From an uncultured Muribaculaceae bacterium (GTDB lineage Bacteria > Bacillota_I > Bacilli_A > RF39 > UBA660), in contig CAZFQF010000001.1 in assembly GCA_964520725.1 (NCBI GenBank), forward strand, positions 1-32,158: a stretch of 32,158 nt of DNA, read 5' to 3'. Below, piece after piece: positions 10,239 through 24,116 of this stretch; position 1 is the first letter of the stretch; the number at the start of each line of letters is the position of its first letter. The notes below the pieces were generated by a model. The model saw only the letters and a program-made list of their open reading frames with translations, had not been told where the DNA came from and made no database searches. A program made the position numbers and the translations under genes.

Positions 10239-11138
10239 TCAGATTATATATATTATAAAAAAAATGATTAAGCTGTATAGCGCTATTAAAGATAATAAGA
10301 TTTTATCATCTGATATTACTTCTACAGGATCTCCATCTCCTTTAGTTTCAATTTGTAAACTATATCTTAAAAGGATTATTAAAACAAATGGTACTGTCCA
10401 TATTAATCTATTACCCGTTTTTAAAACTAGAAATGGATCAGTACACCAAAGAGCATAAAAGACAATTGTTGCTCCTAAACACATATACATATTTTTATCT
10501 AAAAATTCTTTATTATAATATTTTAATACTTCTCTTGTTTCTCCTTTAGTTTTTTTGATTTCATTTCTTCTCTTTCCAAGACCTAAATAAAATGATATAA
10601 AAGTTATTGTTAAATATAACCAATTAGATACCTCAACATTAGCAAGAGAACCTCCATACAGAACTCTAATTAAAAAACCTGTCGCAATTATTGTGATATC
10701 TAAAATCGGAATATTTTTTAGTTTAAAACTATATAAAAAATTTATTGAAAAATATATTAAAATAAATATAAAGCTAGATGATTTTAGATAAGAAAGTAAA
10801 ACAATAGTTACTATTAAAAGAATTATACTGAAAATAATTGCATTAAATTCTGAAATCGCCTTTGAAGCTATTGGACGATTTTTCTTTTTTTCATGTAATC
10901 TATCTTTAGGAGCATCTATTAAATCGTTGATTATATAAATTATTGAAGAGGTAAAAGAAAAAGCAGTAAATCCAAAAAAAACGTTTAAAATTACGGTTGA
11001 ATCGGAAAATAGTTGCTCACTAAAAATTAATGGTAAAAAAATCAAGAAATTTTTAATATAATGTTTGGGTCTCATTAGTTTAAGATAATTAAAAACTAAA
11101 AAAGATATTTGATTTTGTTTGTTTTTAGATGTTTTCAT
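10239..11138 (-). CDS. UbiA-family prenyltransferase, decaprenyl-phosphate phosphoribosyltransferase-like (polyprenyl-phosphate pentose donor synthesis)
   Basis: The track start (11153) is a TTG inside the upstream gene. ATG 11138 (MKTSKNKQ...) has GGAGGA 8 nt upstream. The protein is polytopic and carries the motif NDLIDAPKDRLHEKKKNRPIASKAIS. This matches the NDxxDxxxDRxHxxKxxRPIAsG signature of DPPR synthases (Rv3806c type). Confidence 0.7.
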   Translation of the reverse strand: MKTSKNKQNQISFLVFNYLKLMRPKHYIKNFLIFLPLIFSEQLFSDSTVILNVFFGFTAFSFTSSIIYIINDLIDAPKDRLHEKKKNRPIASKAISEFNAIIFSIILLIVTIVLLSYLKSSSFIFILIYFSINFLYSFKLKNIPILDITIIATGFLIRVLYGGSLANVEVSNWLYLTITFISFYLGLGKRRNEIKKTKGETREVLKYYNKEFLDKNMYMCLGATIVFYALWCTDPFLVLKTGNRLIWTVPFVLIILLRYSLQIETKGDGDPVEVISDDKILLSLIALYSLIIFFIIYII

Positions 11139-11142
11139 TAGA

Positions 11143-12405
11143 CTATCCTCCAATTATTCTTATAATATCACTTACGCTTCGGAAATTAAACAATAATTCG
11201 CAAAATAAAATTAAAAATATTACACTATAAATTAAATAACTAGACTTTTTAGCATGTTTTAAAGATAATCCTAATAATAAAATTATTGCAAATAAGAAGT
11301 GCGGTGTATATAAAAATGATTCGTACAAACCAAACTTTAATCCGAAGTGTAAAATTATATTGAAATTTAGAATTAAAAAGCACGCTATAACATTTCTATC
11401 TATTTTTTTTAATGTTGATAAAATAGGAATATATACTGCCGTTGTTAAAAAAGTTATTATTAAATTTGCTGATGGAATAAAAGAGATTGCCGCACTAAAA
11501 TTGTTACCTAGTTGATCTGTATCTACTGTATCAATATAAAATAACCCCGATGATAACAAATAATAATATAACATTTTTAATTTAACAGTCAATGTATTAT
11601 TATAAGCAAAATTCGTACTATTTTCTGCTACTATTTGAAAAAAGTTTTCATAAACAATTGAAGTATAAATTGGATCTTGAAAATATACTAACCCTAAAAC
11701 CACTAAAAAGCTAATTATAAAGCTTGCAATTAATTTTAACCACGCCTTAATATCTTTAAAACTGATTAAAGCTAAACAGTTTATTCCCCACGCACAAATA
11801 TTTGTAATAGTTGTTCCGAATATAATAACTCCTAGAAATCCTGATAGAATATACTTTTTTTTTGATAGACAATAATAATTGATGATTAATAAAGTTGAAC
11901 TGTAAATAAAACTTTCAGCTAAAACTGTCGAAATAATTATTGAATTAGCAAAAAGAAAAGTCAAACTTAATAAAAAAGCTGCTGTTAATTTCAAGTTAAA
12001 AATATCGTATAAAATTAAAAAGAGAAAAATTATTCCAGTTAGAGAAGTAATTATTTGAAGTATAATTACAAAATTGTAATGTTCGTTAAAAGTTATGGGA
12101 TTTTTAATTCCTTCTTCAAACTGGGCTATCTTATTAGCATTAAAAACTAATAAGGGATGTTTAATAGAAGAATATATTAATTTATGTTTTGTGGTTTCAT
12201 CAGCATCAAAAACTTTATTAATATAATATAAATCATCATAGGAATAAAATCTATCACCAATAAAATGTTTTTTATCATAAACTTGATATTTATTAAATTT
12301 ATTAGTAATAACTAAAAACATAGTTAAAGAAATTATTAATAAACAAATAATTCCAATTAATTTTTTATTGTTAAGTTTTAATTTATTTATAATTGTATTT
12401 TTCAT
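11143..12405 (-). CDS. Polytopic integral membrane protein (about 11 TM segments), candidate GT-C-type glycosyltransferase
   Basis: A 420-aa ORF that is almost entirely hydrophobic helices with short loops. Its stop lies 4 nt before the start of the UbiA-family gene. The function is assigned from architecture and gene pairing only. Confidence 0.4.
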   Translation of the reverse strand: MKNTIINKLKLNNKKLIGIICLLIISLTMFLVITNKFNKYQVYDKKHFIGDRFYSYDDLYYINKVFDADETTKHKLIYSSIKHPLLVFNANKIAQFEEGIKNPITFNEHYNFVIILQIITSLTGIIFLFLILYDIFNLKLTAAFLLSLTFLFANSIIISTVLAESFIYSSTLLIINYYCLSKKKYILSGFLGVIIFGTTITNICAWGINCLALISFKDIKAWLKLIASFIISFLVVLGLVYFQDPIYTSIVYENFFQIVAENSTNFAYNNTLTVKLKMLYYYLLSSGLFYIDTVDTDQLGNNFSAAISFIPSANLIITFLTTAVYIPILSTLKKIDRNVIACFLILNFNIILHFGLKFGLYESFLYTPHFLFAIILLLGLSLKHAKKSSYLIYSVIFLILFCELLFNFRSVSDIIRIIGG

Positions 12406-14269: not shown

Positions 14270-15334
14270 CTATTCATAACCAGCTAAATCTTTAGTTAAG
14301 CTAACTGATACGGCTAAATCCGCCCCTCTTGAATAAGTTTCTAAACTATCTATATCTTGCCCCTCAAGCCAAATATAAACTCTTGCTTTTGTAATCGCAT
14401 TTGGAACTTGAAATATTACTGATTTAAAATCTTTAATCGTATCTTGAAATTTAAAGTTCTTACTATCTAATGGTATTCCAGTTCCATCATGACCATTAGT
14501 ATGTTCTAAACGTGTCCCTTCATTTATAATTCCATAGGTCGGATTAAAAATCCCGTCTTTTAATTTTATTCCATAATTTTCTGCTGTTTCAATTGATTTT
14601 TCCGAATGTTTAAGATAGTTCGGTTCATAAATTATTGCCTCACAAGCATTATTACATTTAATATTTTGAATTGTATTTATATCACTTTTAAGGGGAACAC
14701 TCCCTATTTTAATAATTCCTAATCTCAAAGAATTTATAATTCCATCCATTTCATATTTTACTTCGTCATCGGTTTCTTCTTCATAATCAATAAATGTATC
14801 ATCAGCAATATATAAATTATCAGGAAAAGGAGAGCCACTGACGTTTTTTAAAAAAATATCAAATGCAACAAAATTTGTGGCAGAACGAGAAACTTTTTCA
14901 TCAAAATTAATTGTATTTAATAATCTTTTCACAGTACCATTTGCATTTTTTTCTTTAGTTCTAACTAATTCTCCAGTAAAGATATCAAATTTGTCATTAT
15001 CAACTGTTCTTGGTCCATTAGATGATACTGGCCATAGCCCATAAGACCACTGGTTAGTGTGACTTGGATATGTAGACTTTAAGTCCATGATAATGCTATC
15101 CATTGAGATAGTTACAGAATCAGAAAACTCTACTCCGTCTAAAGAAATAAATATTCCTGTATTACTAGAAACTGACATTTCAAAAAAATGGATTTTTACA
15201 TTTAAAGCTGAAGAAAGCCAAGCATATGTCGAAACTGTTAATAAAACTGTAGTAAAAAAAGTTATTAAAAATAAGACTTTTTTCTTTTTAGTTGAATGTT
15301 CTTTAGTTTGATTCTTTACTTTATCTTTAAACAT
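14270..15334 (-). CDS. Divergent member (354 aa) of the secreted paralogue family; SipW/TasA-type signal junction
   Basis: SD AAAAGAGGA. The N-terminus reads ...VLLTVSTYAWLSSALNVKIHFFEMSV. Family motifs are shared: NFVAFDIFLKNVSG, SLRLGIIKIG, C-x2-C then IIYEPN, and ARVYIWLEGQDIDSLE...LAVSVSLTKD. Confidence 0.7.
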   Translation of the reverse strand: MFKDKVKNQTKEHSTKKKKVLFLITFFTTVLLTVSTYAWLSSALNVKIHFFEMSVSSNTGIFISLDGVEFSDSVTISMDSIIMDLKSTYPSHTNQWSYGLWPVSSNGPRTVDNDKFDIFTGELVRTKEKNANGTVKRLLNTINFDEKVSRSATNFVAFDIFLKNVSGSPFPDNLYIADDTFIDYEEETDDEVKYEMDGIINSLRLGIIKIGSVPLKSDINTIQNIKCNNACEAIIYEPNYLKHSEKSIETAENYGIKLKDGIFNPTYGIINEGTRLEHTNGHDGTGIPLDSKNFKFQDTIKDFKSVIFQVPNAITKARVYIWLEGQDIDSLETYSRGADLAVSVSLTKDLAGYE

Positions 15335-15354
15335 CTAAATCCTCTTTTCTAAAT

Positions 15355-15390
15355 AGAAGTAAAAGAGTAACCAACTCTGATTACTCTTCA
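15355..15390 (-). terminator. Hairpin between the 450-aa paralogue and downstream accessory genes (terminator or attenuating stem)
   Basis: Minus-strand AAGAGTAA (15388..15381), a 10-nt loop, then TTACTCTT (15370..15363), followed by TTACTTCTATTT. The U-tract is imperfect. Confidence 0.45.
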
Positions 15391-15454
15391 TTATTCTAAC
15401 AATATTAAATAATCGTCAGTTTACTTATTTAACATTAATTGTTACTAATTAAAA

Positions 15455-16807
15455 TTATGGTTCTGGTGTTGGTTCAGTAGTTGTTGTAGTAGTTGATGAT
15501 GTTGTTACAGGTCTAGTTGGTCCACTATAATTAAAATCAGTTTCAATAAATCTTTGTTTAGTAAATCCAAATTTAACAGAAATACTTTTTCCAATTGATG
15601 CAAAATCATAGTTATCTACGTCTTGTCCTTCAATATAGATATATACTCTTATTTTAGTAATACTATTTGGAGCTAATTTCATAAATGTTGGACGATCAGT
15701 TCCTGTTTGAATTTTATGTGAATCACTAAAATAAGGATATGCTTCTAATAATTGATCTCCAGTTCCTATTAAAGCGGTTCCATCTCCTGGATCTGGTTCT
15801 TCCGCATCTTTTTCTAATACATTTGTTGTATAACCATTATAAGTTAGACCATCATATACATCAACATTATCACCTGATTCAATTTTTTTAGCAACTGCAT
15901 AAGTTGGATAAGCTGTTCCATTAGCTATAAGTGGGCAATCAAACGCCTTACTATATGAATCTTTCTCTGTTACATCAGAACCAGTTCTTTTTTGACAAGA
16001 TTTTTGATACCAATCAATAGCTCCAGCTACGTGAGCTGTATCATTTGGTTCCCAAATTTGAGCTCTACGAGTACAAATTCCAGTTACGTCAGACCCACCA
16101 GTACAATCAATTCCTGTAATAGTTGCTTGAGTTGTCGTATCGCCACTTACTCGTCCGATTTGAGCGAACGCTACTCTAACTGAGTTTTCAATTCCTGTCC
16201 CAGATACACCAGGTGTAGTTGCCCCACTATCAGAAACTCCGACAGCAGAATCTACTGATAGATAAATTGCTTCTTCATCTAGCTCATCTAATTCTTCAAT
16301 ATATTGAGCTCCAGTAGAGTTTTTGATGAATAAATCAAACGCAACATACCCATCAACTTCTGTTTCAGTATAATCTCCTTCATCATCTTTAACTGTATTT
16401 TCAACTTGACTAGCTATTAATCTATATCCTCCTGGTGTTGCTGTTAAACTAGCTTTTTCATACATAATTAATCTAGATGAACCTGAATCAATATCACCAA
16501 CACTTGACATTGGAATTAGACCTTTTCCAGCCCACCAGTTAGTATTACCATCATATGGATTTTCATCACCTGTTTTTGCGTTGTAGTTAGCCTCAGAAAT
16601 ACTTACGGTATCAAACCATTTAGCACCATTTAATGATAATTGTAAGTCTTCAGTAGCAGCAATTTCAACATCAAAACTAGAAACATTTACAGTTCGCATA
16701 CCAACAAACCATGCATAGGTTGAAACTGATAAGATTATCGCTGTTAAAGATAAAGCAATAACCAAATTTCTAATACGCATTTTATGTGTTTTATTTTCTT
16801 TTTTCAT
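15455..16807 (-). CDS. Secreted fibre-subunit candidate, paralogue A (450 aa), with a Thr/Pro-rich C-terminal tail
   Basis: SD AGAGGT. The N-terminus reads IRNLVIALSLTAIILSVSTYAWFVGMRTVNVSSFDVEIAA. Core motifs are GYVAFDLFIKN, GIENSVRVAFAQIGRV, C..GIC..AQIWEPND, TKIRVYIYIEGQDVDNYDF and GKSISVKFGFTKQRF. The tail reads RPVTTSSTTTTTTEPTPEP. Confidence 0.75.
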   Translation of the reverse strand: MKKENKTHKMRIRNLVIALSLTAIILSVSTYAWFVGMRTVNVSSFDVEIAATEDLQLSLNGAKWFDTVSISEANYNAKTGDENPYDGNTNWWAGKGLIPMSSVGDIDSGSSRLIMYEKASLTATPGGYRLIASQVENTVKDDEGDYTETEVDGYVAFDLFIKNSTGAQYIEELDELDEEAIYLSVDSAVGVSDSGATTPGVSGTGIENSVRVAFAQIGRVSGDTTTQATITGIDCTGGSDVTGICTRRAQIWEPNDTAHVAGAIDWYQKSCQKRTGSDVTEKDSYSKAFDCPLIANGTAYPTYAVAKKIESGDNVDVYDGLTYNGYTTNVLEKDAEEPDPGDGTALIGTGDQLLEAYPYFSDSHKIQTGTDRPTFMKLAPNSITKIRVYIYIEGQDVDNYDFASIGKSISVKFGFTKQRFIETDFNYSGPTRPVTTSSTTTTTTEPTPEP

Positions 16808-16832
16808 AATTACCTCTTTCCTCTTTCTTTTT

Positions 16833-17525
16833 CTATTTAATTATTTCGGATTTAAAGTCCAGGTGAACCTTAAATTCCCCTCCCAAAATGTTGTCTGTAC
16901 ATTCGGGATCGGTTCCTTCTAGCCATAAGACTATTGTATACTTGTCAAGCGCATTTGGAGCAAAATTTTCCACATGATCGCTAGCAACAATGGTATCTGA
17001 AGTAAATGCAACAGTATCTTTTTCTGGAGTTCCATTTCTTGATATTTTTGCATAAGTTGTTTCCTCTCCATTCTTATAAACTCTTATTCGAATGGCTTCA
17101 TCAACATTTTTTATAACATCGTCAATGATTATCTCGGACCAATAATCAGCAATTTCTTGCCCAAGGTTTTCAATATAAAAGGTGTATGCAATAAAGTTCT
17201 CGCCATTATGTGACCCATTACTTCGATCATTTAGATTATTAGGCAACCACTTAGATGATATATTATCTATAAAATCCATCGTTTCAGCTCTTAATTCCGA
17301 TCTAAATACTTTATAATCAGGATCATCATAAATGATAATTCCGTTTTTTGTATATAAATCTCGATCTAAATTTACACAAAAGGTCCCATTGCTATATATA
17401 ATATTAAATATTATATAGATAATTAGTAAGAGTAGTAAAATTATTAAAAGTAGAAACTTTAATGACTTTACTATTTTCTTCTTGCGCCTAATCTGATTAG
17501 CACTAGTTACAATTTCCTTTTTCAT
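16833..17525 (-). CDS. Membrane-anchored short member (230 aa) of the same family; candidate anchor or nucleator
   Basis: A single N-terminal TM segment (LKFLLLIILLLLLIIYIIFNIIY) without the STYAWF junction. It retains the family edge motifs NFIAYTFYIENLG and KYTIVLWLEGTDPECTDN...EFKVHLDFKSE but lacks the Cys-containing central insert. It lies 25 nt upstream of paralogue A, so the two are probably co-transcribed. Confidence 0.6.
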   Translation of the reverse strand: MKKEIVTSANQIRRKKKIVKSLKFLLLIILLLLLIIYIIFNIIYSNGTFCVNLDRDLYTKNGIIIYDDPDYKVFRSELRAETMDFIDNISSKWLPNNLNDRSNGSHNGENFIAYTFYIENLGQEIADYWSEIIIDDVIKNVDEAIRIRVYKNGEETTYAKISRNGTPEKDTVAFTSDTIVASDHVENFAPNALDKYTIVLWLEGTDPECTDNILGGEFKVHLDFKSEIIK

Positions 17526-17586
17526 TCTTTACCTTTTTCTTTTTTCGATGTTATACTCTGATACACCTACCTTAATATACAATTTG

Positions 17587-17640
17587 ATTTTACCAATTAA
17601 ATAATTTTTTGTCAATTCAATTTGTCGAAAAAAGTCGAAA
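17587..17640 (-). promoter_or_regulatory. Sigma-A-type promoter with phased upstream CGAC repeats (230-aa gene plus paralogue A operon)
   Basis: Gene-sense sequence: TTTCGACTTTTTTCGACAAATTGAATTGACAAAAAATTATTTAATTGGTAAAAT. The -35 is TTGACA (17615..17610), the spacer is 17 nt, and the extended -10 is TGGTAAAAT (17595..17587). CGAC cores lie 13 and 23 nt upstream of the -35 TGAC. Confidence 0.6.
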
Positions 17641-17707
17641 AACAAGAATTTAAATTTTTGGTTTTTAACTTATTTAAAATATTTATTTTTTCTTTTTTAT
17701 AGCCACT

Positions 17708-17739
17708 AAAAAAAGAACTGAATTTTGACTCAAGTTCCT
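17708..17739 (-). terminator. Candidate rho-independent terminator after paralogue B
   Basis: Minus-strand GGAACTTGA, a loop, then TTCAGTTC forms an imperfect stem with a GAACT/AGTTC core. A run of seven T follows (17714..17708). Confidence 0.45.
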
Positions 17740-17766
17740 TTTAATTTTATTTGATAAATCTATTTT

Positions 17767-19230
17767 TTATCCTGCAGCTTTAACGGTAACTGTTCTTGTT
17801 TTAGTCGCTACATTTCCTGCTGTATCTGAGACTGTATAAGTGATTTTATATTCTCCTATAACGTTAATATTAACAGTTCCTGTTGCTTTTATTTTATCAG
17901 CAGCTATTGTTCCATCTTTATTATCTTTAGCTGTTGCTCCCGGATCAACAAAAGTACTACCTTTAGTAATTTCCATTGGTGAATCACCTAATAATGTAAT
18001 AATTGGAGCTGTTTTATCATCAGCATCTGGACCGTCACCTTGGTTAACATCTGGTCCTGTGTAATCAATATCATCTTCATTAAATCTTTCTTTAGTAAAT
18101 CCGAATTTAATCGAAATACTTTTACCAATTGAAGAGAAATCATAGTTATCGATATCTTGTCCTTCAATATAAATGTATATTCTTACTTTAGTTATACTAC
18201 TTGGAGCTAATTTCATAAATGTTGGACGATTAGTTCCAGTTTTTAATTTATCAGTATCAGTAAAATATGGGAATGCTGTTAATTGACTTGAAGTTTCATA
18301 ACCGTTGTAAGCTTCACCATCATAAATATCTACTCCCATTGCTGAAGTAATAGCTTTATTAATTGCATATGTAGGATATGCAAGCCCATCAATAACTTCT
18401 CCACATTCTCCAGCATAAGAGTCTGCTTTAGTTATATCAGTGCCAGTGGTTTTTCTTGCTAAACATGATTCTTCATACCAGTTAATCGCGTTTTTCTCAT
18501 GATCTGTATCATTGGGTTCCCAAATTTGAGCTGTGCGAGTACAAATACCAGTTACATTCGTATCAGTATTACAACCGATTCCTGTAATTGTTTCTTGATC
18601 AGTTGTATCACCTTTTACACGTCCTATTTGTGCAAATGCTACTCTAATTGAGTTTTCAATTCCTGTTTTGTCAACTCCTCCAGCTTCACTTAATGAAACG
18701 GTTGCCTCTGAGTCAACTGTTAAATAAATTGCCTCTTCATCTTTTTCGTCATAAGTATCAATATATTGAGTTCCAGTTAAATTTCGGATAAATAAATCAA
18801 ATGCTACATACCCTCTTTGCTCGGTTGCACCGTTGTTTTTTACTTGACTAGCCATTAATCTATAGCCACCTGCGGTAGCTGTGTAACTTGCCTTCTCAAA
18901 TAATTTTAATCTGCCTACGGTTGAATCTATATCTCCAACTGTTGATATTGGGATTAGTCCTTTAGCTGTTCCACCCCAAATATTAGTATTGTTAGTATAA
19001 GTAGTACTAAAATTACTTGCATTGATTGTAACTGAATCTCCAAAATTAGTTCCAGTTAATGATAGTGATAACTGATCAACAGCCGCAATTTTAACATCAA
19101 AGCTAGATACGTTTACCGTACGCAAGCCTACAAACCATGCATAAGTTGAAACCGAGATAACTACTGCTGTTAAAGCAAAAATTATTACTAAGTTTCTAAT
19201 TTTTCTGTTTGTTTTAGTTTCTTTTTTCAT
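17767..19230 (-). CDS. Secreted fibre-subunit candidate, paralogue B (487 aa), with a C-terminal DUF5011-type Ig-like domain
   Basis: SD GAGAGAGGGA. The N-terminus reads IRNLVIIFALTAVVISVSTYAWFVGLRTVNVSSFDVKIAA, and the core motifs match paralogue A. The C-terminus reads DKTAPIITLLGDSPMEITKGSTFVDPGATAKDNKDGTI...GEYKITYTVSDTAGNVATKTRTVTVK, which matches the DUF5011 (Cry22Aa-type Ig-like) pattern. Confidence 0.75.
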   Translation of the reverse strand: MKKETKTNRKIRNLVIIFALTAVVISVSTYAWFVGLRTVNVSSFDVKIAAVDQLSLSLTGTNFGDSVTINASNFSTTYTNNTNIWGGTAKGLIPISTVGDIDSTVGRLKLFEKASYTATAGGYRLMASQVKNNGATEQRGYVAFDLFIRNLTGTQYIDTYDEKDEEAIYLTVDSEATVSLSEAGGVDKTGIENSIRVAFAQIGRVKGDTTDQETITGIGCNTDTNVTGICTRTAQIWEPNDTDHEKNAINWYEESCLARKTTGTDITKADSYAGECGEVIDGLAYPTYAINKAITSAMGVDIYDGEAYNGYETSSQLTAFPYFTDTDKLKTGTNRPTFMKLAPSSITKVRIYIYIEGQDIDNYDFSSIGKSISIKFGFTKERFNEDDIDYTGPDVNQGDGPDADDKTAPIITLLGDSPMEITKGSTFVDPGATAKDNKDGTIAADKIKATGTVNINVIGEYKITYTVSDTAGNVATKTRTVTVKAAG

Positions 19231-19318
19231 AATTCCCTCTCTCTATTTTTCTTGTATATTTTTTCCTACAACATAATATACATCTATAATCCGATACCCT
19301 CTATCGTAATATACTATT

Positions 19319-19370
19319 ATCTTACCATAATCAAAATCTTTGTCAATATTTTTGTCGTTTTTTGTCAACT
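19319..19370 (-). promoter_or_regulatory. Sigma-A-type promoter with phased upstream GAC repeats (paralogue B)
   Basis: Gene-sense sequence: AGTTGACAAAAAACGACAAAAATATTGACAAAGATTTTGATTATGGTAAGAT. The -35 is TTGACA (19346..19341), the spacer is 16 nt, and the extended -10 is TGGTAAGAT (19327..19319). Confidence 0.6.
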
Positions 19371-19385
19371 TTTTTTTAATTTTTA

Positions 19386-19417
19386 TAAAAAAAGCAAAAT
19401 CGCTAATCGACTGGCTT
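19386..19417 (-). terminator. Candidate rho-independent terminator after paralogue C
   Basis: Minus-strand AGCCAGTCG, ATTAG, then CGATTTTGCT forms an imperfect stem, followed by a T run (19393..19387). Confidence 0.35.
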
Positions 19418-19422
19418 AATTT

Positions 19423-20895
19423 TTAAATAACGTTTACTTTTAATATTATTTGCTCAGCATAATTTCCTGCCCAATCGCTAACATCATATGTTACATAATA
19501 AGTTCCTGGGATATTAGTATTAACAGGATTAGTAACTACAATTCTTCTGGTTAAGTCTTCAGTTAAATCTCCACTTTCATCTTCTCCATATTTATCAATT
19601 GCTGTTGCAGTTGGTAAGACTAATTTTTCTCCCTGATTGATATTAATTTCTGTATCACTTGGATCAATACTAATAATTGGTGCCCAAACATCACTTCCAT
19701 AATCTGGCCCTTTTTCATGATCGATATCTTCTTCATTAAATCTTTGTTTAGTAAATCCAAACTCTATAGAAATTCTTTTACCAAGAGCTGCAAAATCATA
19801 GTTATCTATATCTTGTCCTTCAATATAAATGTATATTCTTACTTTAGTTATACTATTAGCTCCTAAAGTAAAAATTTCTGTTCTATTTGTCCCTTCATTT
19901 TCCTTAAGTGTATCAGTAAAAAATGGAAAGTTAGTTAATTTAGTAGTATTATTGTAGCTATTATATATTCCATCATAAATATCAACGTTATCTGCTGAAG
20001 ATATCGGACTATTTATAACATACGTCGGATAAGCAACGCCATCTTTTAGCGTTTTACAACTTCCTCCATAAGATGAGTCTTTAGTTAAGTCACTACCGGT
20101 TCTTTTTAAACACGATTTATTATACCAAGAAATAGCATTAATATTATGTAATGTATCGTTCGGTTCCCAAATTGCAGCATTACGACATATTCCTGTTACT
20201 CCTTCAGATATTGTTGGCTTTCCCTCAGAATTGCCATTACATTTAATTCCAGTGATTATATTAGGATCCGTTGTATTTCCAGCTACTCTTCCAACTTGGG
20301 CAAAAGCAACTCTTACTGAATTTTCAATTCCTGTTCCTAAATTCCCTGTAGCTCCAATAGTTACTAATGAGTCAGCTGTCAAATAAATAGCCTCTTCATC
20401 TAAGGCATTTAATTCACTTATATATTTTCTACCTGATAAATTTTTAATAAATAAATCAAAAGCAATATAGCCACCAGGATTAGTTGTTTTATTATTAACT
20501 AAGCTAGCCATTATCCTATATCCTCCTGGCGTAGCCGTAAAACTAGATTTTTCATACAATTTCATTCTTGAAGATAAAACATCCATTTCTCCTACAGACG
20601 ATAAAGGAATTAATCCTTTACCTCCCCAGGTGTTAGTATTTCCTGAATAAACAGTATTAGTATCATTATAATTATCTTCAGAAATAAAAACTGTTGTATC
20701 CCATCTGCGGCCATTTAATGATAGTAATAAACTATCGGTTACCGCAATTCCAATATCGAAACTAGACATATTAACAGTTCTAAGACCGACAAACCATGCA
20801 TAAGTCGAAGCCGAAATTATAATAGCTGTTAGCGCAAAGATTATTATTAGATTTTTAGCTTTACTCTTGGGTTGATTTTCATTTTTTTTCATCAT
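19423..20895 (-). CDS. Secreted fibre-subunit candidate, paralogue C (490 aa), with a C-terminal DUF5011-type Ig-like domain
   Basis: SD AGAGGT. The start may be the second ATG (20892). The N-terminus reads AKNLIIIFALTAIIISASTYAWFVGLRTVNMSSFDIGIAV, and the core motifs are conserved. The C-terminus reads DVWAPIISIDPSDTEININQGEKLVLPTATAIDKYGED...GTYYVTYDVSDWAGNYAEQIILKVNV. Confidence 0.75.
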   Translation of the reverse strand: MMKKNENQPKSKAKNLIIIFALTAIIISASTYAWFVGLRTVNMSSFDIGIAVTDSLLLSLNGRRWDTTVFISEDNYNDTNTVYSGNTNTWGGKGLIPLSSVGEMDVLSSRMKLYEKSSFTATPGGYRIMASLVNNKTTNPGGYIAFDLFIKNLSGRKYISELNALDEEAIYLTADSLVTIGATGNLGTGIENSVRVAFAQVGRVAGNTTDPNIITGIKCNGNSEGKPTISEGVTGICRNAAIWEPNDTLHNINAISWYNKSCLKRTGSDLTKDSSYGGSCKTLKDGVAYPTYVINSPISSADNVDIYDGIYNSYNNTTKLTNFPFFTDTLKENEGTNRTEIFTLGANSITKVRIYIYIEGQDIDNYDFAALGKRISIEFGFTKQRFNEEDIDHEKGPDYGSDVWAPIISIDPSDTEININQGEKLVLPTATAIDKYGEDESGDLTEDLTRRIVVTNPVNTNIPGTYYVTYDVSDWAGNYAEQIILKVNVI

Positions 20896-20943: not shown

Positions 20944-20993
20944 ATCTTAACATATTCTTATTTTATGTCAATGTTTTTTGTCGATTTTTGTTC
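20944..20993 (-). promoter_or_regulatory. Sigma-A-type promoter with phased upstream GAC repeats (paralogue C)
   Basis: Gene-sense sequence: GAACAAAAATCGACAAAAAACATTGACATAAAATAAGAATATGTTAAGAT. The -35 is TTGACA (20971..20966), the spacer is 16 nt, and the extended -10 is TGTTAAGAT (20952..20944). Confidence 0.6.
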
Positions 20994-20995
20994 AT

Positions 20996-21021
20996 AAAAA
21001 AAGTCTCAGTTTTATCTGAAA
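20996..21021 (-). terminator. Candidate terminator of the DUF2207 gene, overlapping its last codons
   Basis: Minus-strand TTTCAG (21021..21016), loop ATAAAA, then CTGAGA (21009..21004) with one G-U pair. CTTTTTTT follows. Confidence 0.4.
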
Positions 21022-22691
21022 CCTCCTCCGCCTCCGCCGCCACCGAAGGACCCACCGCCTCCTCCGCCAGAAGAAAATCCGCCTCCGCCAGAAGAATAGC
21101 TTTGAGCTCTTGACCTAGCACTTGAAGCGCTATTTACTCCTCTATATGACATGGCATTAATAAATATTATATCCTCATACGTGTATGATAAATCGGTAAT
21201 CATATCTGGATATAGTTTTTTAAATTCAGATGCCACTTTATCTCCTATTCCAAATATTTGTGCATACACTAAATAATATTCCCATAGTTGAACTTCAATT
21301 GCCGATTTTTCATCAATACTCGAAAATTCGTTTAAGAATTTTTTTAATCCCACTAATTTTTTAGCCTCTTCATAAATTTCGGGAGTTTCTACATAGTTTG
21401 AAAAAAGCTTTTGGGGTTTTATTAATAGATTTTTATTAACGCAATTATTTTTTTGCTCCACTTTAACGTCTTTAAACCAATCTAAGACTTTACTATAGTT
21501 GGTTTTACAATATTTTTCAAATTCTTTTGATTCTAAAACGCCATCTTTACTAGCCTCATGCATGTAACGAAACATTTTAGACTCTAAATTATCTGCATCA
21601 ACATTTTCATTAAATTTAGAAATATCCATTACTAGAGACGTTTCTTCATTAGTTTTAATAATCCCTTTTTTTTCTTTTAATTCGATTTTCACATAACCTT
21701 TTCTTATCCAAGTTAGAATTAAAGCTCCTAAAAAATCATTATCTTTCTTTGCTAAATTATAACTATTAGCTAGAAAGAAAGCATAGAAAATATTTTTATC
21801 ACAAGGAATATCTCGAAAATAATTCAAATCTTTATGGAATTTACCTTTAGAAATAGTTTTTTTAAAATTATTATTTTGATAGCTTGATTTAACTATTGAA
21901 ACACAAACACCAATAATAAAAATAAAACTAAATAACCGAGATAAAGTGCTAAAAAGGTTAGATCCATTATTTTCTTCGTAATGTACGGCTCCTTCTTCAG
22001 CCATATTATGATATTCATTAAAATTCCCAGAAATAATATTATTAGTTGCAAACATTCCTTTTGGAAGCTCGACTAAAATAGTCATATATTCATCAGAACC
22101 AAGAGTTCCATCACTATTCATTTCAATTTTTCGATCATAAACGTATGCAGTTCCGCCATAATTCCCATAACCCCAGACTGCGATATTATCATCAAATCCT
22201 GCATCACTTCTAATCACAATTTTAATATCTTTAGGTTTAAGTGATAATTCATACGGAATGAGCGTCCAATAAATCATCTGCTTATCGGCTAAATCCGCAA
22301 CAAATCCACTGATATCATATTTTAAAGTATATAAATTTTTTCCATATTTACTTATTCCCCAGCAAAGCTCTACTCCATCGCTTAGATAGTTTATTCCGTT
22401 TTGATAAGCCTTATCATTAAAAGATCCATTAACATTCCAATTAGAATTATAATTAAATTTTGTTCCTTCTTGATTATAAACTTCGAAATTGCTTATTACA
22501 GAATTACCTAAATTATAATATGGCTTATAACCTTCGGTTCCTTTTTTAATATTTACATCCCAATTTTCCGTAATATGGGCAGTTCCTTCTTTATCTAAAT
22601 AAATATCCATGGTTATTTGATTAATTGAATCAGCCTTAACAGGTAATATAAATCCAAACATTAAAATAAAAATTAATAAAATTTTTTTCAT
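21012..22691 (-). CDS. DUF2207-family membrane protein with a Gly-rich C-terminal tail
   Basis: A signal peptide is followed by DSINQITMDIYLDKEGTAHITENWDVN, a typical DUF2207 N-terminal domain. There are central TM segments and a terminal SSGGGGFSSGGGGGGSFGGGGGGGGFR. It sits next to a LemA gene, which is the usual pairing. Confidence 0.75.
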   Translation of the reverse strand: MKKILLIFILMFGFILPVKADSINQITMDIYLDKEGTAHITENWDVNIKKGTEGYKPYYNLGNSVISNFEVYNQEGTKFNYNSNWNVNGSFNDKAYQNGINYLSDGVELCWGISKYGKNLYTLKYDISGFVADLADKQMIYWTLIPYELSLKPKDIKIVIRSDAGFDDNIAVWGYGNYGGTAYVYDRKIEMNSDGTLGSDEYMTILVELPKGMFATNNIISGNFNEYHNMAEEGAVHYEENNGSNLFSTLSRLFSFIFIIGVCVSIVKSSYQNNNFKKTISKGKFHKDLNYFRDIPCDKNIFYAFFLANSYNLAKKDNDFLGALILTWIRKGYVKIELKEKKGIIKTNEETSLVMDISKFNENVDADNLESKMFRYMHEASKDGVLESKEFEKYCKTNYSKVLDWFKDVKVEQKNNCVNKNLLIKPQKLFSNYVETPEIYEEAKKLVGLKKFLNEFSSIDEKSAIEVQLWEYYLVYAQIFGIGDKVASEFKKLYPDMITDLSYTYEDIIFINAMSYRGVNSASSARSRAQSYSSGGGGFSSGGGGGGSFGGGGGGGGFR

Positions 22692-22751
22692 TTAAAATCA
22701 TCTCTATAATAATATTAACACAAATCAAAAAAAAAAGAACCTAAAAGATTC

Positions 22752-23303
22752 TTAAAATTTAACTTTGACGTTCTCTTTTTCTGCTTCAGTTGCAGCAAAG
22801 AATGTTTCTTCTTTAAATCCAAACATTGATGCAACAAAGTTAGTTGGGAAAGTTTGTAGTTTAACATTATATTTCATTACAATATCATTATAAAATTGTC
22901 TTGCAAAAGATATTTTATCTTCGGTGTCTCTTAAATCATTTTGCATATTCAAGAAATTAGTATCAGCTTTTAATTCTGGATAGCTTTCGCTTAAAGCAAA
23001 TAATTTGTTCATAACTGAGGACAACTCTCCGTTAGCTTTTAATTGTTCTTCAGGAGTTCCGGCTGATAAATAAGTATTTCTTGCTTCAACAACTTTTGTT
23101 AGAGTGTCTGCCTCGTGCTTAGTATAACCTTTAATAGTTTCTATCAAGTTGGGAATTAAATCAAATCTTCTTTTTAATTGAACATCAATTTGCGCCCATT
23201 GATTTTTAACTTTATTACGTAAACCTACTAAGCTGTTATAAACAGATATTACATATAAAATTAAGATAACTACTATTACAAGTATAATATATGGCCATGT
23301 CAT
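22752..23303 (-). CDS. lemA: LemA family protein
   Basis: 183 aa. An N-terminal TM segment is followed by YNSLVGLRNKVKNQWAQIDVQLKRRFDLIPNLIETIKGYTKHE...ARQFYND, the characteristic LemA pattern. Confidence 0.85.
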   Translation of the reverse strand: MTWPYIILVIVVILILYVISVYNSLVGLRNKVKNQWAQIDVQLKRRFDLIPNLIETIKGYTKHEADTLTKVVEARNTYLSAGTPEEQLKANGELSSVMNKLFALSESYPELKADTNFLNMQNDLRDTEDKISFARQFYNDIVMKYNVKLQTFPTNFVASMFGFKEETFFAATEAEKENVKVKF

Positions 23304-23390
23304 AACATCTTTATCCTTTCTTTATAATTTATTTTAGCATAAAAATTTATGTAAAACAATTATTTATTATATTTAATTATATTAATAAGT

Positions 23391-24116
23391 TTATCTAAAT
23401 ATATAATTAATAATATCTTTATTTTTAAATTCTAATTTTACTGAGTAAATACCTGATCCAGTACTCGAAAAAATTATTGTGTTTTTATCATAATTATTTT
23501 CATATGTGTAATTAAGTATTTTGCTGTTTTCCTCTAAAATATTTTCAACGTTCAAAACATTAAAGCTTTCAGTTCCGACTAGTTTTATTTTTTCACCTTC
23601 GGGAATTACATTAGCACTTAAATTTTTTGTGTTGTAGTAGTCTTCTGAACTTAAAAGAACAAATTCTTGGGAATTAATCTTATAAGGCAAAGCTAAAATT
23701 GGCGAAAATATGAATTCTTCATTACTAGTACTTCCAGATATTTTTTCTAAGTATCTAATCATTATCGGGTCTTTTTCAATTCTCTGAATTAGTTTGGTTT
23801 TATCATTATTATTTCCTATAATGGCTTCTACCTTATTAACAATTACTTTATATTTGTCTTGAAAATATTCAACTTTGATTTTATCATTTACCCCGAAAAT
23901 ATTAGTCTGGATTTCTAAGCTTTCTTCTACTTTTGCCTCAGCATCATCATTTAGTTTTGCACTCATCATTTTTGCAGAACGTCTTTCGATTATTGTTGCC
24001 GTAGCATTATAAGTAATTAAAGAAGCTGTGGTAGATTCCAAAGTAAACATAATAATGCCAAAAACAACGCCAATAAAAATCGTTAAAATATAAAAGTATT
24101 TTCTTTTCTTTCTCAT
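23391..24116 (-). CDS. Hypothetical N-terminally anchored or secreted protein (241 aa)
   Basis: An intact ORF with one N-terminal hydrophobic segment (YFYILTIFIGVVFGIIMF). I recognise no motif in it. Confidence 0.5.
   Translation of the reverse strand: MRKKRKYFYILTIFIGVVFGIIMFTLESTTASLITYNATATIIERRSAKMMSAKLNDDAEAKVEESLEIQTNIFGVNDKIKVEYFQDKYKVIVNKVEAIIGNNNDKTKLIQRIEKDPIMIRYLEKISGSTSNEEFIFSPILALPYKINSQEFVLLSSEDYYNTKNLSANVIPEGEKIKLVGTESFNVLNVENILEENSKILNYTYENNYDKNTIIFSSTGSGIYSVKLEFKNKDIINYIFR

Follow-up and report, generated by a model that had tools for sequence, protein, structure and literature searches.

Five tandem genes on the minus strand of a 32,158-nucleotide (nt) stretch of DNA from an uncultured Muribaculaceae bacterium (contig CAZFQF010000001.1, assembly GCA_964520725.1; the whole stretch is called the window) encode proteins of 490, 487, 230, 450 and 354 amino acids (aa), here designated C, B, E, A and D (Table 1). 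We assign a probability of about 0.45 to the reading that these genes lie within one conserved operon of about nine gene families that builds a cell-surface assembly and processes it with a signal peptidase of its own. Judging from sequences and structure models, the product of the operon is probably a surface fibre or coat, made of proteins with a predicted fold that matches nothing solved.

The operon was defined by tblastn and BLASTP searches of all window proteins against 69 related loci. Its co-directional order, i.e. E, one to four genes of the A/B/C type (ABC-type), D, p543, p1217, p193, p495, p179 and the signal peptidase gene pep723, recurs across dozens of uncultured low-GC genomes labelled Bacilli or 'Mollicutes'. 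Among the 69 loci, E is found in 54, p543 in 52, p1217 in 48, p193 in 43, p495 in 40 and p179 in 34. The peptidase gene closes the operon in related loci and is present in 23 of the 69, typically those reaching far enough downstream. Its product matches TIGR02228 with 66.1 bits (cut-off 51.85), and the catalytic residues S63 (SM), H99 (THR) and D114 (GDAN) are invariant in 14/14 orthologues. Transmembrane (TM) segments at residues 15-33 and 145-163 flank the catalytic domain. Since the score against the Bacillus SipW equivalog (43.5 bits) lies below its cut-off of 190, pep723 is not a strict SipW orthologue.

An initial annotation had described the five genes as paralogues of one secreted family with a conserved core. 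All five open reading frames (ORFs) were found on the minus strand at the coordinates then given, and the long alignable core of the 450-, 487- and 490-aa proteins was recovered: A, B and C are mutually 55-65% identical over ~390 aa (BLASTP E=1e-151 to 1e-171). D is clearly a true but distant paralogue, with 27% identity (BLASTP E=6e-29; hhalign probability 100%, E=7e-53), and forms a single-copy orthologue group of its own in every locus. For E, on the other hand, paralogy could not be demonstrated, as BLASTP gave E=0.022 over 41 aa that cover the C-terminal hairpin motif only. The alignment of D with E is colinear across the whole E domain and matches every shared motif (FiAFDiFLKN/YvAYTFYIEN, PTYa/TYAK and ITKxRVYvWiEGQDiD/KYTIViWlEGsDpE), skipping the cysteine-rich insert of the core. 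At best, E may be a stripped-down remote relative of the core from which this insert is gone. E is a single-copy gene and the most conserved one of the operon (59-79% identity). Because of its long hydrophobic N-terminus without the junction motif described below, it is likely an uncleaved membrane anchor. The four cysteines reported as conserved are kept in A, B and C, but D has one of them and E none.

The best-conserved stretch of A, B and C is the junction behind the hydrophobic region together with the first strand (aa 28-50), with 78-91% identity compared with 61-65% for the core. In 74 orthologues, most columns of the junction and the following W-F-[IV]-G-M-[RK]-T-V-N-V-S-S-F-D-V are conserved to 90% or more. 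The strong conservation originally ascribed to the whole signal and h-region thus holds for the junction and first strand, but not for the h-region itself, which is variable across the family (20-50% conserved). Here the third codon positions of A, B and C are no more alike than background. This argues for purifying selection on the protein rather than recent gene conversion, which we rule out as the cause of the N-terminal conservation. Between the paralogues, synonymous sites are saturated at 55-65% amino-acid identity.

The Sec-type n-h-c organisation of the N-termini was confirmed. A, B, C, D, p193, p495 and p1217 share a basic n-region, a hydrophobic region and a junction T-[YFLW]-[AS]-x-[FYL], which takes the form STYAWF in A/B/C, STYAW[LF] in D, GITYSxF in p193, [ST][FY]AKY in p495 and PTLA[RS][FY] in p1217. 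Within aa 11-60, the pattern [TS][YFLW][AS].[FYL] occurs in 77/80 ABC-type, 50/52 D, 39/42 p193, 30/36 p495 and 29/38 p1217 sequences, whereas the controls gave 0/53 (E), 2/28 (p179) and 1/54 (p543), with a background of 0.0014 per residue; as the pattern was set after the data had been seen, these counts are descriptive and do not constitute a test. In every family, positions -3 (T/S) and -1 (A/S) suit signal peptidase I (SPase I), and the register of the junction is that of the T-W-A↓A-F site of TasA cut by SipW. The TasA donor strand comprises residues 28-38, directly behind this cut (PMC9674648). With a TIGR02228 peptidase in the same operon and a junction common to five otherwise unrelated secreted families, but not to E, p179 and p543, the conserved junction most plausibly acts as the element by which a dedicated peptidase recognises its substrates, one of the two roles that had been suggested for it.

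The core belongs to a large family. More than 2,300 close homologues carry, at best, the name 'DUF5011 domain-containing protein' or 'hypothetical protein'; an exhaustive profile search returned 1,080 clusters at 50% identity with E<=1e-3 (653 with E<=1e-10), and ten divergent representatives that were checked were all metagenome proteins without a name. No description of the operon or the core family was found in the literature. In the window proteins and in 56 diverse members, the core matched neither Pfam nor NCBIfam, nor the TasA/camelysin models Peptidase_M73, NF046066, TIGR04089 and TIGR04090. Its hidden Markov model (HMM) profile yielded 0 matches among PDB sequences, and the same was true for the profiles of the E and p193 families. 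An AlphaFold model of full-length B (predicted local distance difference test, pLDDT, 85; predicted template modelling score, pTM, 0.83) consists of a helix (residues 4-35), a beta-rich core and an immunoglobulin-like (Ig) module, and pLDDT falls below 50 exactly at residues 31-36. When this model was compared with the PDB using Foldseek, the Ig module alone was matched, so that the result says nothing about the core. A core-only model is beta-rich and confident (pLDDT 84.9, pTM 0.88) and found no match in BFVD; the N-terminal strand sits within its monomer fold (pLDDT 90-96), as in monomeric TasA. The polar residues S57, S96, D145, R196, E238, H244, E356, Q358, D359 and D361 are invariant or nearly so in the 56 members. 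Since Pfam, NCBIfam, PDB-sequence, Foldseek and hhalign comparisons were all matchless, the core can, as far as sequence and model comparisons tell, be recognised neither as a known enzyme nor as a TasA or pilin fold.

These conserved polar residues lend themselves to another explanation, namely that the proteins are undescribed secreted enzymes that attack, for example, glycans of host or diet, or the cell wall, with a catalytic core, substrate-binding C-terminal modules and a tandem expansion as in polysaccharide-utilisation genes. A conserved core with variable binding-type C-terminal modules is indeed common in secreted carbohydrate-active enzymes, and a core without a fold match leaves room for catalysis. 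We consider this distinctly improbable: the refuting case envisaged for the initial annotation, a core from a characterised non-fibre family such as an enzyme, did not materialise in Pfam, NCBIfam, PDB sequences or PDB folds, the conserved operon is devoid of transporter, regulator and sugar-metabolism genes, and its arrangement, with a peptidase, a minor paralogue, an anchor-like protein and a giant protein, is that of filament loci. Moreover, E retains the strand motifs of the core but not its WEPN..H segment.

It is important to note that a number of observations weigh against a self-assembling structure processed by pep723. The core shows no relation to any known pilin by sequence or fold (PDB). 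Its hhalign probability against TasA is 0.1-0.15%, and the best Foldseek match of the core-only model in the PDB reached E=0.25 with a probability of <=0.06 and a template modelling score of <0.2, no TasA-superfamily entry being listed. Of the TasA analogy drawn in the initial annotation, the position of the strand stands, but not a likeness in sequence or fold. The only operon protein with detectable, weak TasA similarity is p193 (hhalign 75%, E=2.5e-5 with signal peptides); once the signal peptides are removed, 9.5% and E=3.4e-3 over 33 columns (L.dL.PGD..F.v.N.G) are left, a score still above 20/20 shuffled controls. Below significance are the profile-profile comparison of E with the core (probability 18-28%, E ~1e-3) and the alignment of p179 with the peptidase domain of pep723, which have the same topology and are colinear (hhalign 15%, E=1.7e-3). 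The invariant D/E/H/R/S residues would likewise be in keeping with an enzyme or a metal-binding site, and p543 and the extension of pep723 have no counterpart in the TasA system. The TIGR04088 model of SipW signals, which gave 38 bits for the TasA control, matched 1/42 operon N-termini (E=0.013) and none of the window proteins at E<=1; by this comparison, the proteins are outside the TIGR04088 class and resemble TasA signals in motif and register alone. In A, B and C, the hydrophobic stretch (~20 residues) is modelled as part of one long helix, so it could be a retained anchor. Finally, we infer cleavage, polymerisation and donor-strand exchange alike.

The length and continuity of this helix, together with the missing TIGR04088 match, suit the alternative that the N-terminal helix of A-D is uncleaved and that these proteins are type II-anchored coat proteins or adhesins displaying their C-terminal modules, with the peptidase processing some other proteins or none of A-D. 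E is apparently anchored in this manner already, and variable C-terminal modules are typical for adhesins. However, the junction is near-invariant while the helix is poorly conserved, and its motif recurs in five families beside a dedicated peptidase but is absent from the clearly anchored E. The SPase I-compatible -3/-1 positions in every family and the drop in model confidence exactly at residues 31-36 likewise speak against a retained helix. On balance, we regard tethered adhesins as rather unlikely.

The initial annotation had also noted swapped C-terminal modules. This holds family-wide: a PF16403 (DUF5011)-like module is present in 84 of 143 ABC-type ORFs in the 69 loci, another tail of 25-99 aa in 29, a short tail in 22, a tail rich in threonine, proline and serine (T/P/S-rich) in 6 and a large other module in 2. 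Distant family members carry, besides PF16403, DUF6273, ALK_LTK_GRD and Flg_new_2 modules at the C-terminus. The contrast between the T/P-rich tail of A and the Ig modules of B and C was confirmed, but the latter are not of unrelated sequence: both match PF16403 (B, 80.5 bits, E=1e-22; C, 37.1 bits, E=3e-9; gathering cut-off 27) and are 40% identical, hence homologous. Foldseek and PDB-sequence matches of the full protein are confined to this domain. At codons ~316-375 of A, B and C, the third-position identity rises to 0.7-0.83 compared with ~0.5 elsewhere, which suggests gene conversion or recombination along this tract, a possible route for the swapping of modules. ABC-type copies number 1-4 per locus, a lower bound where contigs end. 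This variation in copy number, together with C-terminal modules that resemble cassettes, suggests that the displayed surface is still diversifying.

C, B and E are each preceded by one of three near-identical promoter-like elements with one or two CGACA(A) boxes before TTGACA and an extended -10 element. The arrangement CGACAAA, TTGACA, 16-17 nt, TGnTAARAT occurs three times in the window compared with 0 expected by chance. CGACAAA-TTGACA recurs in nine related loci (L002, L003, L008, L010, L011, L024, L042, L045 and L046), always on the operon strand, and in the seven that were compared with gene positions it precedes E or ABC-type genes. A regulator may bind to the repeated box. Together with terminator-like hairpins, these elements would fit major-subunit genes that are transcribed separately and strongly.

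Taken together, we propose the following mechanism. Sec would carry A, B, C, D, p193, p495 and p1217 out of the cytoplasm, and the operon peptidase would cleave them behind the [AS] of the junction; in A, B and C the cut would expose the near-invariant N-terminus W-F-[IV]-G-[ML]-[RK]-T-V-N-V-S-S-F-D-V. Because of their variable copy number, their own strong promoter-like elements, terminator-like hairpins and differing C-terminal modules, the ABC-type proteins are taken to be the abundant major subunits. Outside the cell they would assemble by themselves, with no need of ATP or sortase, and most likely form a linear fibre that is held by the conserved N-terminal strand and displays Ig or other C-terminal modules on its surface. 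D, as a single-copy minor subunit, could act as adaptor, initiator or terminator, E would be a membrane-proximal anchor that keeps a membrane helix and a stripped-down core, and p193, p495 and p1217 may be accessory or tip/adhesin components. From inside the cell, the cytoplasmic extension of pep723 and p543 might couple or regulate the process.

The same cleaved and secreted subunits could also assemble by lateral, possibly Ca2+-mediated contacts into a two-dimensional lattice like a surface layer (S-layer), or into an amorphous matrix. A conserved acidic E-G-Q-D-x-D motif and other invariant acidic residues, as well as several co-expressed major paralogues, which are common in S-layers, would agree with this, and TasA-superfamily relatives such as AbpX form Ca2+-dependent para-crystalline networks (bioRxiv 10.64898/2026.01.04.697558). 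Pfam scans, however, found no S-layer homology (SLH) or other wall-binding module, and it is rather in fibre systems that a single-copy minor paralogue and tip-like proteins are typically seen. A lattice or matrix is therefore quite unlikely.

The extension of pep723 (1074-2735), by topology cytoplasmic, comprises a variable linker (aa 200-300) and a conserved domain (aa 300-723). Neither the extension nor p543 has a match in Pfam, NCBIfam or PDB sequences, and the two are unrelated to each other. An EAL-like domain at the end of the extension was considered, but found no support in Pfam (E<=10) or in the PDB sequence search. p179 has a conserved ISSENYKKGD where the peptidase has its Ser box and lacks a His box; it shows no DUF5305 match. 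By analogy with streptococcal SipA/LepA, it may be a non-catalytic peptidase paralogue and would serve as a peptidase-like helper.

Among the remaining genes, p193 probably starts at M11 (6412), as suggested by its homologues, which are mostly 176-183 aa long. Matches of p495 in other loci (tblastn) cover only its N-terminal ~240-290 aa, so that the Laminin_G_3 module seems particular to the window genome and C-terminal swapping may not be limited to ABC-type genes. In p1217, which has no Pfam match, the junction is followed by a near-invariant W-D-G-[ST]-x-A...G-x-G-T-x-x-[DN]-P-Y-x-I-S-N-G and, further on, by repeated G-G-[IL]-x-G motifs; by eye, these resemble the repeats of beta-helical adhesins. 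The UbiA-family and DUF6080 genes are absent from all 69 related loci and are therefore not part of the conserved system. The best NCBIfam matches of the UbiA protein are decaprenyl-phosphate phosphoribosyltransferase models, below cut-off. It is speculation that the two form an acquired lipid-linked-sugar glycosylation pair, perhaps acting on the T/P-rich tail of A. Directly upstream of C lie two paired membrane-protein genes, LemA and DUF2207, and the gene of a 241-aa protein whose FadA-like match is weak (21012-24116, minus strand). As this neighbourhood is common to only 4-5 of the closest loci, it is probably unrelated to the operon.

Pfam and NCBIfam scans of every operon protein, relaxed thresholds included, yielded only PF16403, Laminin_G_3, Peptidase_S24/TIGR02228, UbiA and DUF6080. 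No LPXTG (LP.[TSA]G), P-loop, twin-arginine translocation (Tat; [ST]RRx[FLIV]) or type IV pilin motif was found in the 17 minus-strand proteins checked (1074-25797), and no sortase family was matched by any window ORF in the Pfam or NCBIfam scans. Sortase-dependent Gram-positive pilins were ruled out in view of the missing sorting signal and sortase. Type IV pilins were rejected as well: there is neither a class III signal nor a P-loop protein, and the conserved motif comes after the hydrophobic segment, not before it.

Table 1. Positions in the window of the genes and sequence elements discussed in the text.
Feature	Positions	Strand	Description
Paralogue C, 490 aa	19423-20895	minus	ABC-type, candidate major modular subunit; signal, STYAWF junction, core ~360 aa, PF16403 at aa 414-481 (19453-19656)
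Paralogue B, 487 aa	17767-19230	minus	ABC-type; junction and first strand aa 28-50 (19081-19149), core to aa 383, PF16403 at aa 411-483 (17782-18000)
E, 230 aa	16833-17525	minus	Hydrophobic N-terminal stretch of at least 21 aa without junction motif, then 'mini-core' domain; likely uncleaved membrane anchor
Paralogue A, 450 aa	15455-16807	minus	ABC-type; T/P-rich C-terminal tail (15458-15547), no Ig module
D, 354 aa	14270-15334	minus	Distant paralogue of core, without C-terminal module; candidate minor subunit
Promoter-like element upstream of C	20944-20983	minus	CGACAAA box, TTGACA, 16 nt, TGnTAAGAT
Promoter-like element upstream of B	19319-19357	minus	Same design as upstream of C
Promoter-like element upstream of E	17587-17627	minus	Same design; 11/12 consensus positions plus TG
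Terminator-like hairpin and U-run between A and D	15362-15389	minus	z=-2.9
Weaker hairpins with U-runs after B and C	~17707-17742 (B), ~19387-19417 (C)	minus	
Tract of high third-position identity, codons ~316-375	~15680-15860 (A), ~18105-18285 (B), ~19770-19950 (C)		Last two core strands, just before module junction
p543, 543 aa	12471-14102	minus	Conserved; no hydrophobic segment, predicted cytoplasmic; no family match
UbiA-family prenyltransferase (DPPR-synthase-like) and DUF6080 polytopic membrane protein	10239-12405	minus	Between p543 and p1217
p1217, 1217 aa	6432-10085	minus	Conserved giant secreted protein; PTLA-[RS]-[FY] junction; candidate adhesin or tip component
p193, 193 aa	5861-6442	minus	Small secreted beta-rich protein; GITYS-x-F junction
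p495, 495 aa	4384-5871	minus	Secreted; [ST][FY]A-K-Y junction; C-terminal Laminin_G_3 lectin-like module aa 338-487
p179, 179 aa	3806-4345	minus	TM, beta-rich domain, TM; candidate non-catalytic peptidase-like accessory protein
pep723, 723 aa	1074-3245	minus	SipW/archaeal-type (S26B) signal peptidase I domain aa 20-160 and cytoplasmic extension of ~560 aa

All of the 69 loci, which stem from one-genome-per-species data, come from metagenome-assembled or uncultured records, with human gut (Hadza/UMGS), rumen, rabbit and anaerobic digesters or biogas reactors among the sources. Their labels are mostly Bacilli, Mollicutes, Tenericutes, Erysipelotrichia or Bacillota, and in many other cases uncultured Muribaculaceae. 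L001, L002, L005, L006, L008, L010 and others are titled 'uncultured Muribaculaceae bacterium' and L003 'Ignavibacteriales bacterium'; in view of the gene content and the close similarity to metagenome-assembled genomes of Bacilli and Mollicutes, these labels look wrong for records with a low-GC, Bacilli-type operon. The window itself comes from the chromosome of a bacterium with a cell wall, as it carries UvrB, a MetRS fragment, LD-carboxypeptidase and VanY. If the operon product is a fibre or coat, it would probably be the dominant surface structure of these little-known gut Bacilli and relevant to adhesion, phage and immune recognition, and aggregation.

SipA/LepA of streptococcal pilus islands is a non-catalytic, signal-peptidase-like pilus chaperone of a sortase-dependent system. 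p179 resembles it in its TM-beta-TM topology, its colinearity with a peptidase and the missing His box. The differences are that the likeness of p179 to the peptidase is sub-significant and that neither a sortase nor LPXTG occurs here.

Parallels are also offered by the archaeal and bacterial AbpX/AbpA bundling-pilus loci, which combine a TIGR02228-type SPase I with an accessory membrane protein, minor subunits, tips and anchors. Some of their SPases are fused to extra membrane or cytoplasmic modules (bioRxiv 10.64898/2026.01.04.697558). In contrast to these loci, no AbpX/TasA-superfamily subunit was detected among A-E, p179 is without DUF5305, and the extension of the peptidase is a predicted soluble cytoplasmic domain instead of additional TM helices. 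The haloarchaeal tafi system (TafA, TafC, TafE, TafF and the peptidase TafD; PMC11821415) shares with the operon a major subunit, a minor or adaptor paralogue, a dedicated signal peptidase I, a lectin-type tip protein (here p495 with Laminin_G_3) and a membrane-anchored paralogous domain (here E, compare TafF). The lectin module of p495 gives the only match to the Taf family models, a partial one to TafC (28 bits, cut-off 410). Here, however, the host is bacterial, the subunits are non-homologous and E is anchored by its N-terminus rather than its C-terminus; as there is no twin-arginine motif, export would proceed by Sec rather than Tat.

In published TasA-superfamily loci, an SPase I of the TIGR02228 type and an accessory protein for it are typically accompanied by minor subunits, a tip and an anchor (bioRxiv 10.64898/2026.01.04.697558; tafi, PMC11821415; cannulae preprint), and the operon is laid out in the same way. 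On our preferred reading, it would belong with the SPase I-linked, self-assembling surface systems of the TasA kind. As in tapA-sipW-tasA of B. subtilis, and also in the systems of B. cereus CalY/TasA and C. perfringens BsaA, a dedicated S26B/SipW-type peptidase is encoded with its putative substrates; pep723 is thus the co-located dedicated S26B signal peptidase expected of a TasA-type system. Also alike are the T-x-A↓x-F junction register, the position of the most conserved segment directly after the cut, where the TasA donor strand lies, and the lack of both ATPase and sortase; p193 adds its weak TasA-like N-terminal similarity. On the other hand, the operon differs in the ~360-aa core with a Cys-rich insert, which has no TasA likeness in sequence or fold, in the swappable C-terminal modules, in the one to four major-subunit genes, in the ~560-aa peptidase extension and in the extra p543, p1217, p179 and E; moreover, TIGR04088 and Peptidase_M73 are matchless here.

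The descriptions of TasA, Abp and tafi loci that were reviewed mention no soluble cytoplasmic partner like the pep723 extension or p543, so that inside-out control by these two parts would have no counterpart there. A bolder interpretation, which we put forward tentatively and consider doubtful, is that the operon represents a previously unrecognised filament class of uncultured, reduced-genome gut and digester Bacilli, in which a new-fold subunit polymerises via an S26B-made N-terminus, cassette-like C-terminal modules decorate the fibre and are shuffled by recombination at the homogenised tract just before the module junction, and the pep723 domain together with p543 exerts control from the cytoplasm. 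If the operon does build a fibre or coat, the principle of a dedicated SPase I with self-assembling subunits, as known from TasA, Abp and tafi, would extend to a subunit fold that resembles no solved structure and to a peptidase that has a large domain in the cytoplasm.

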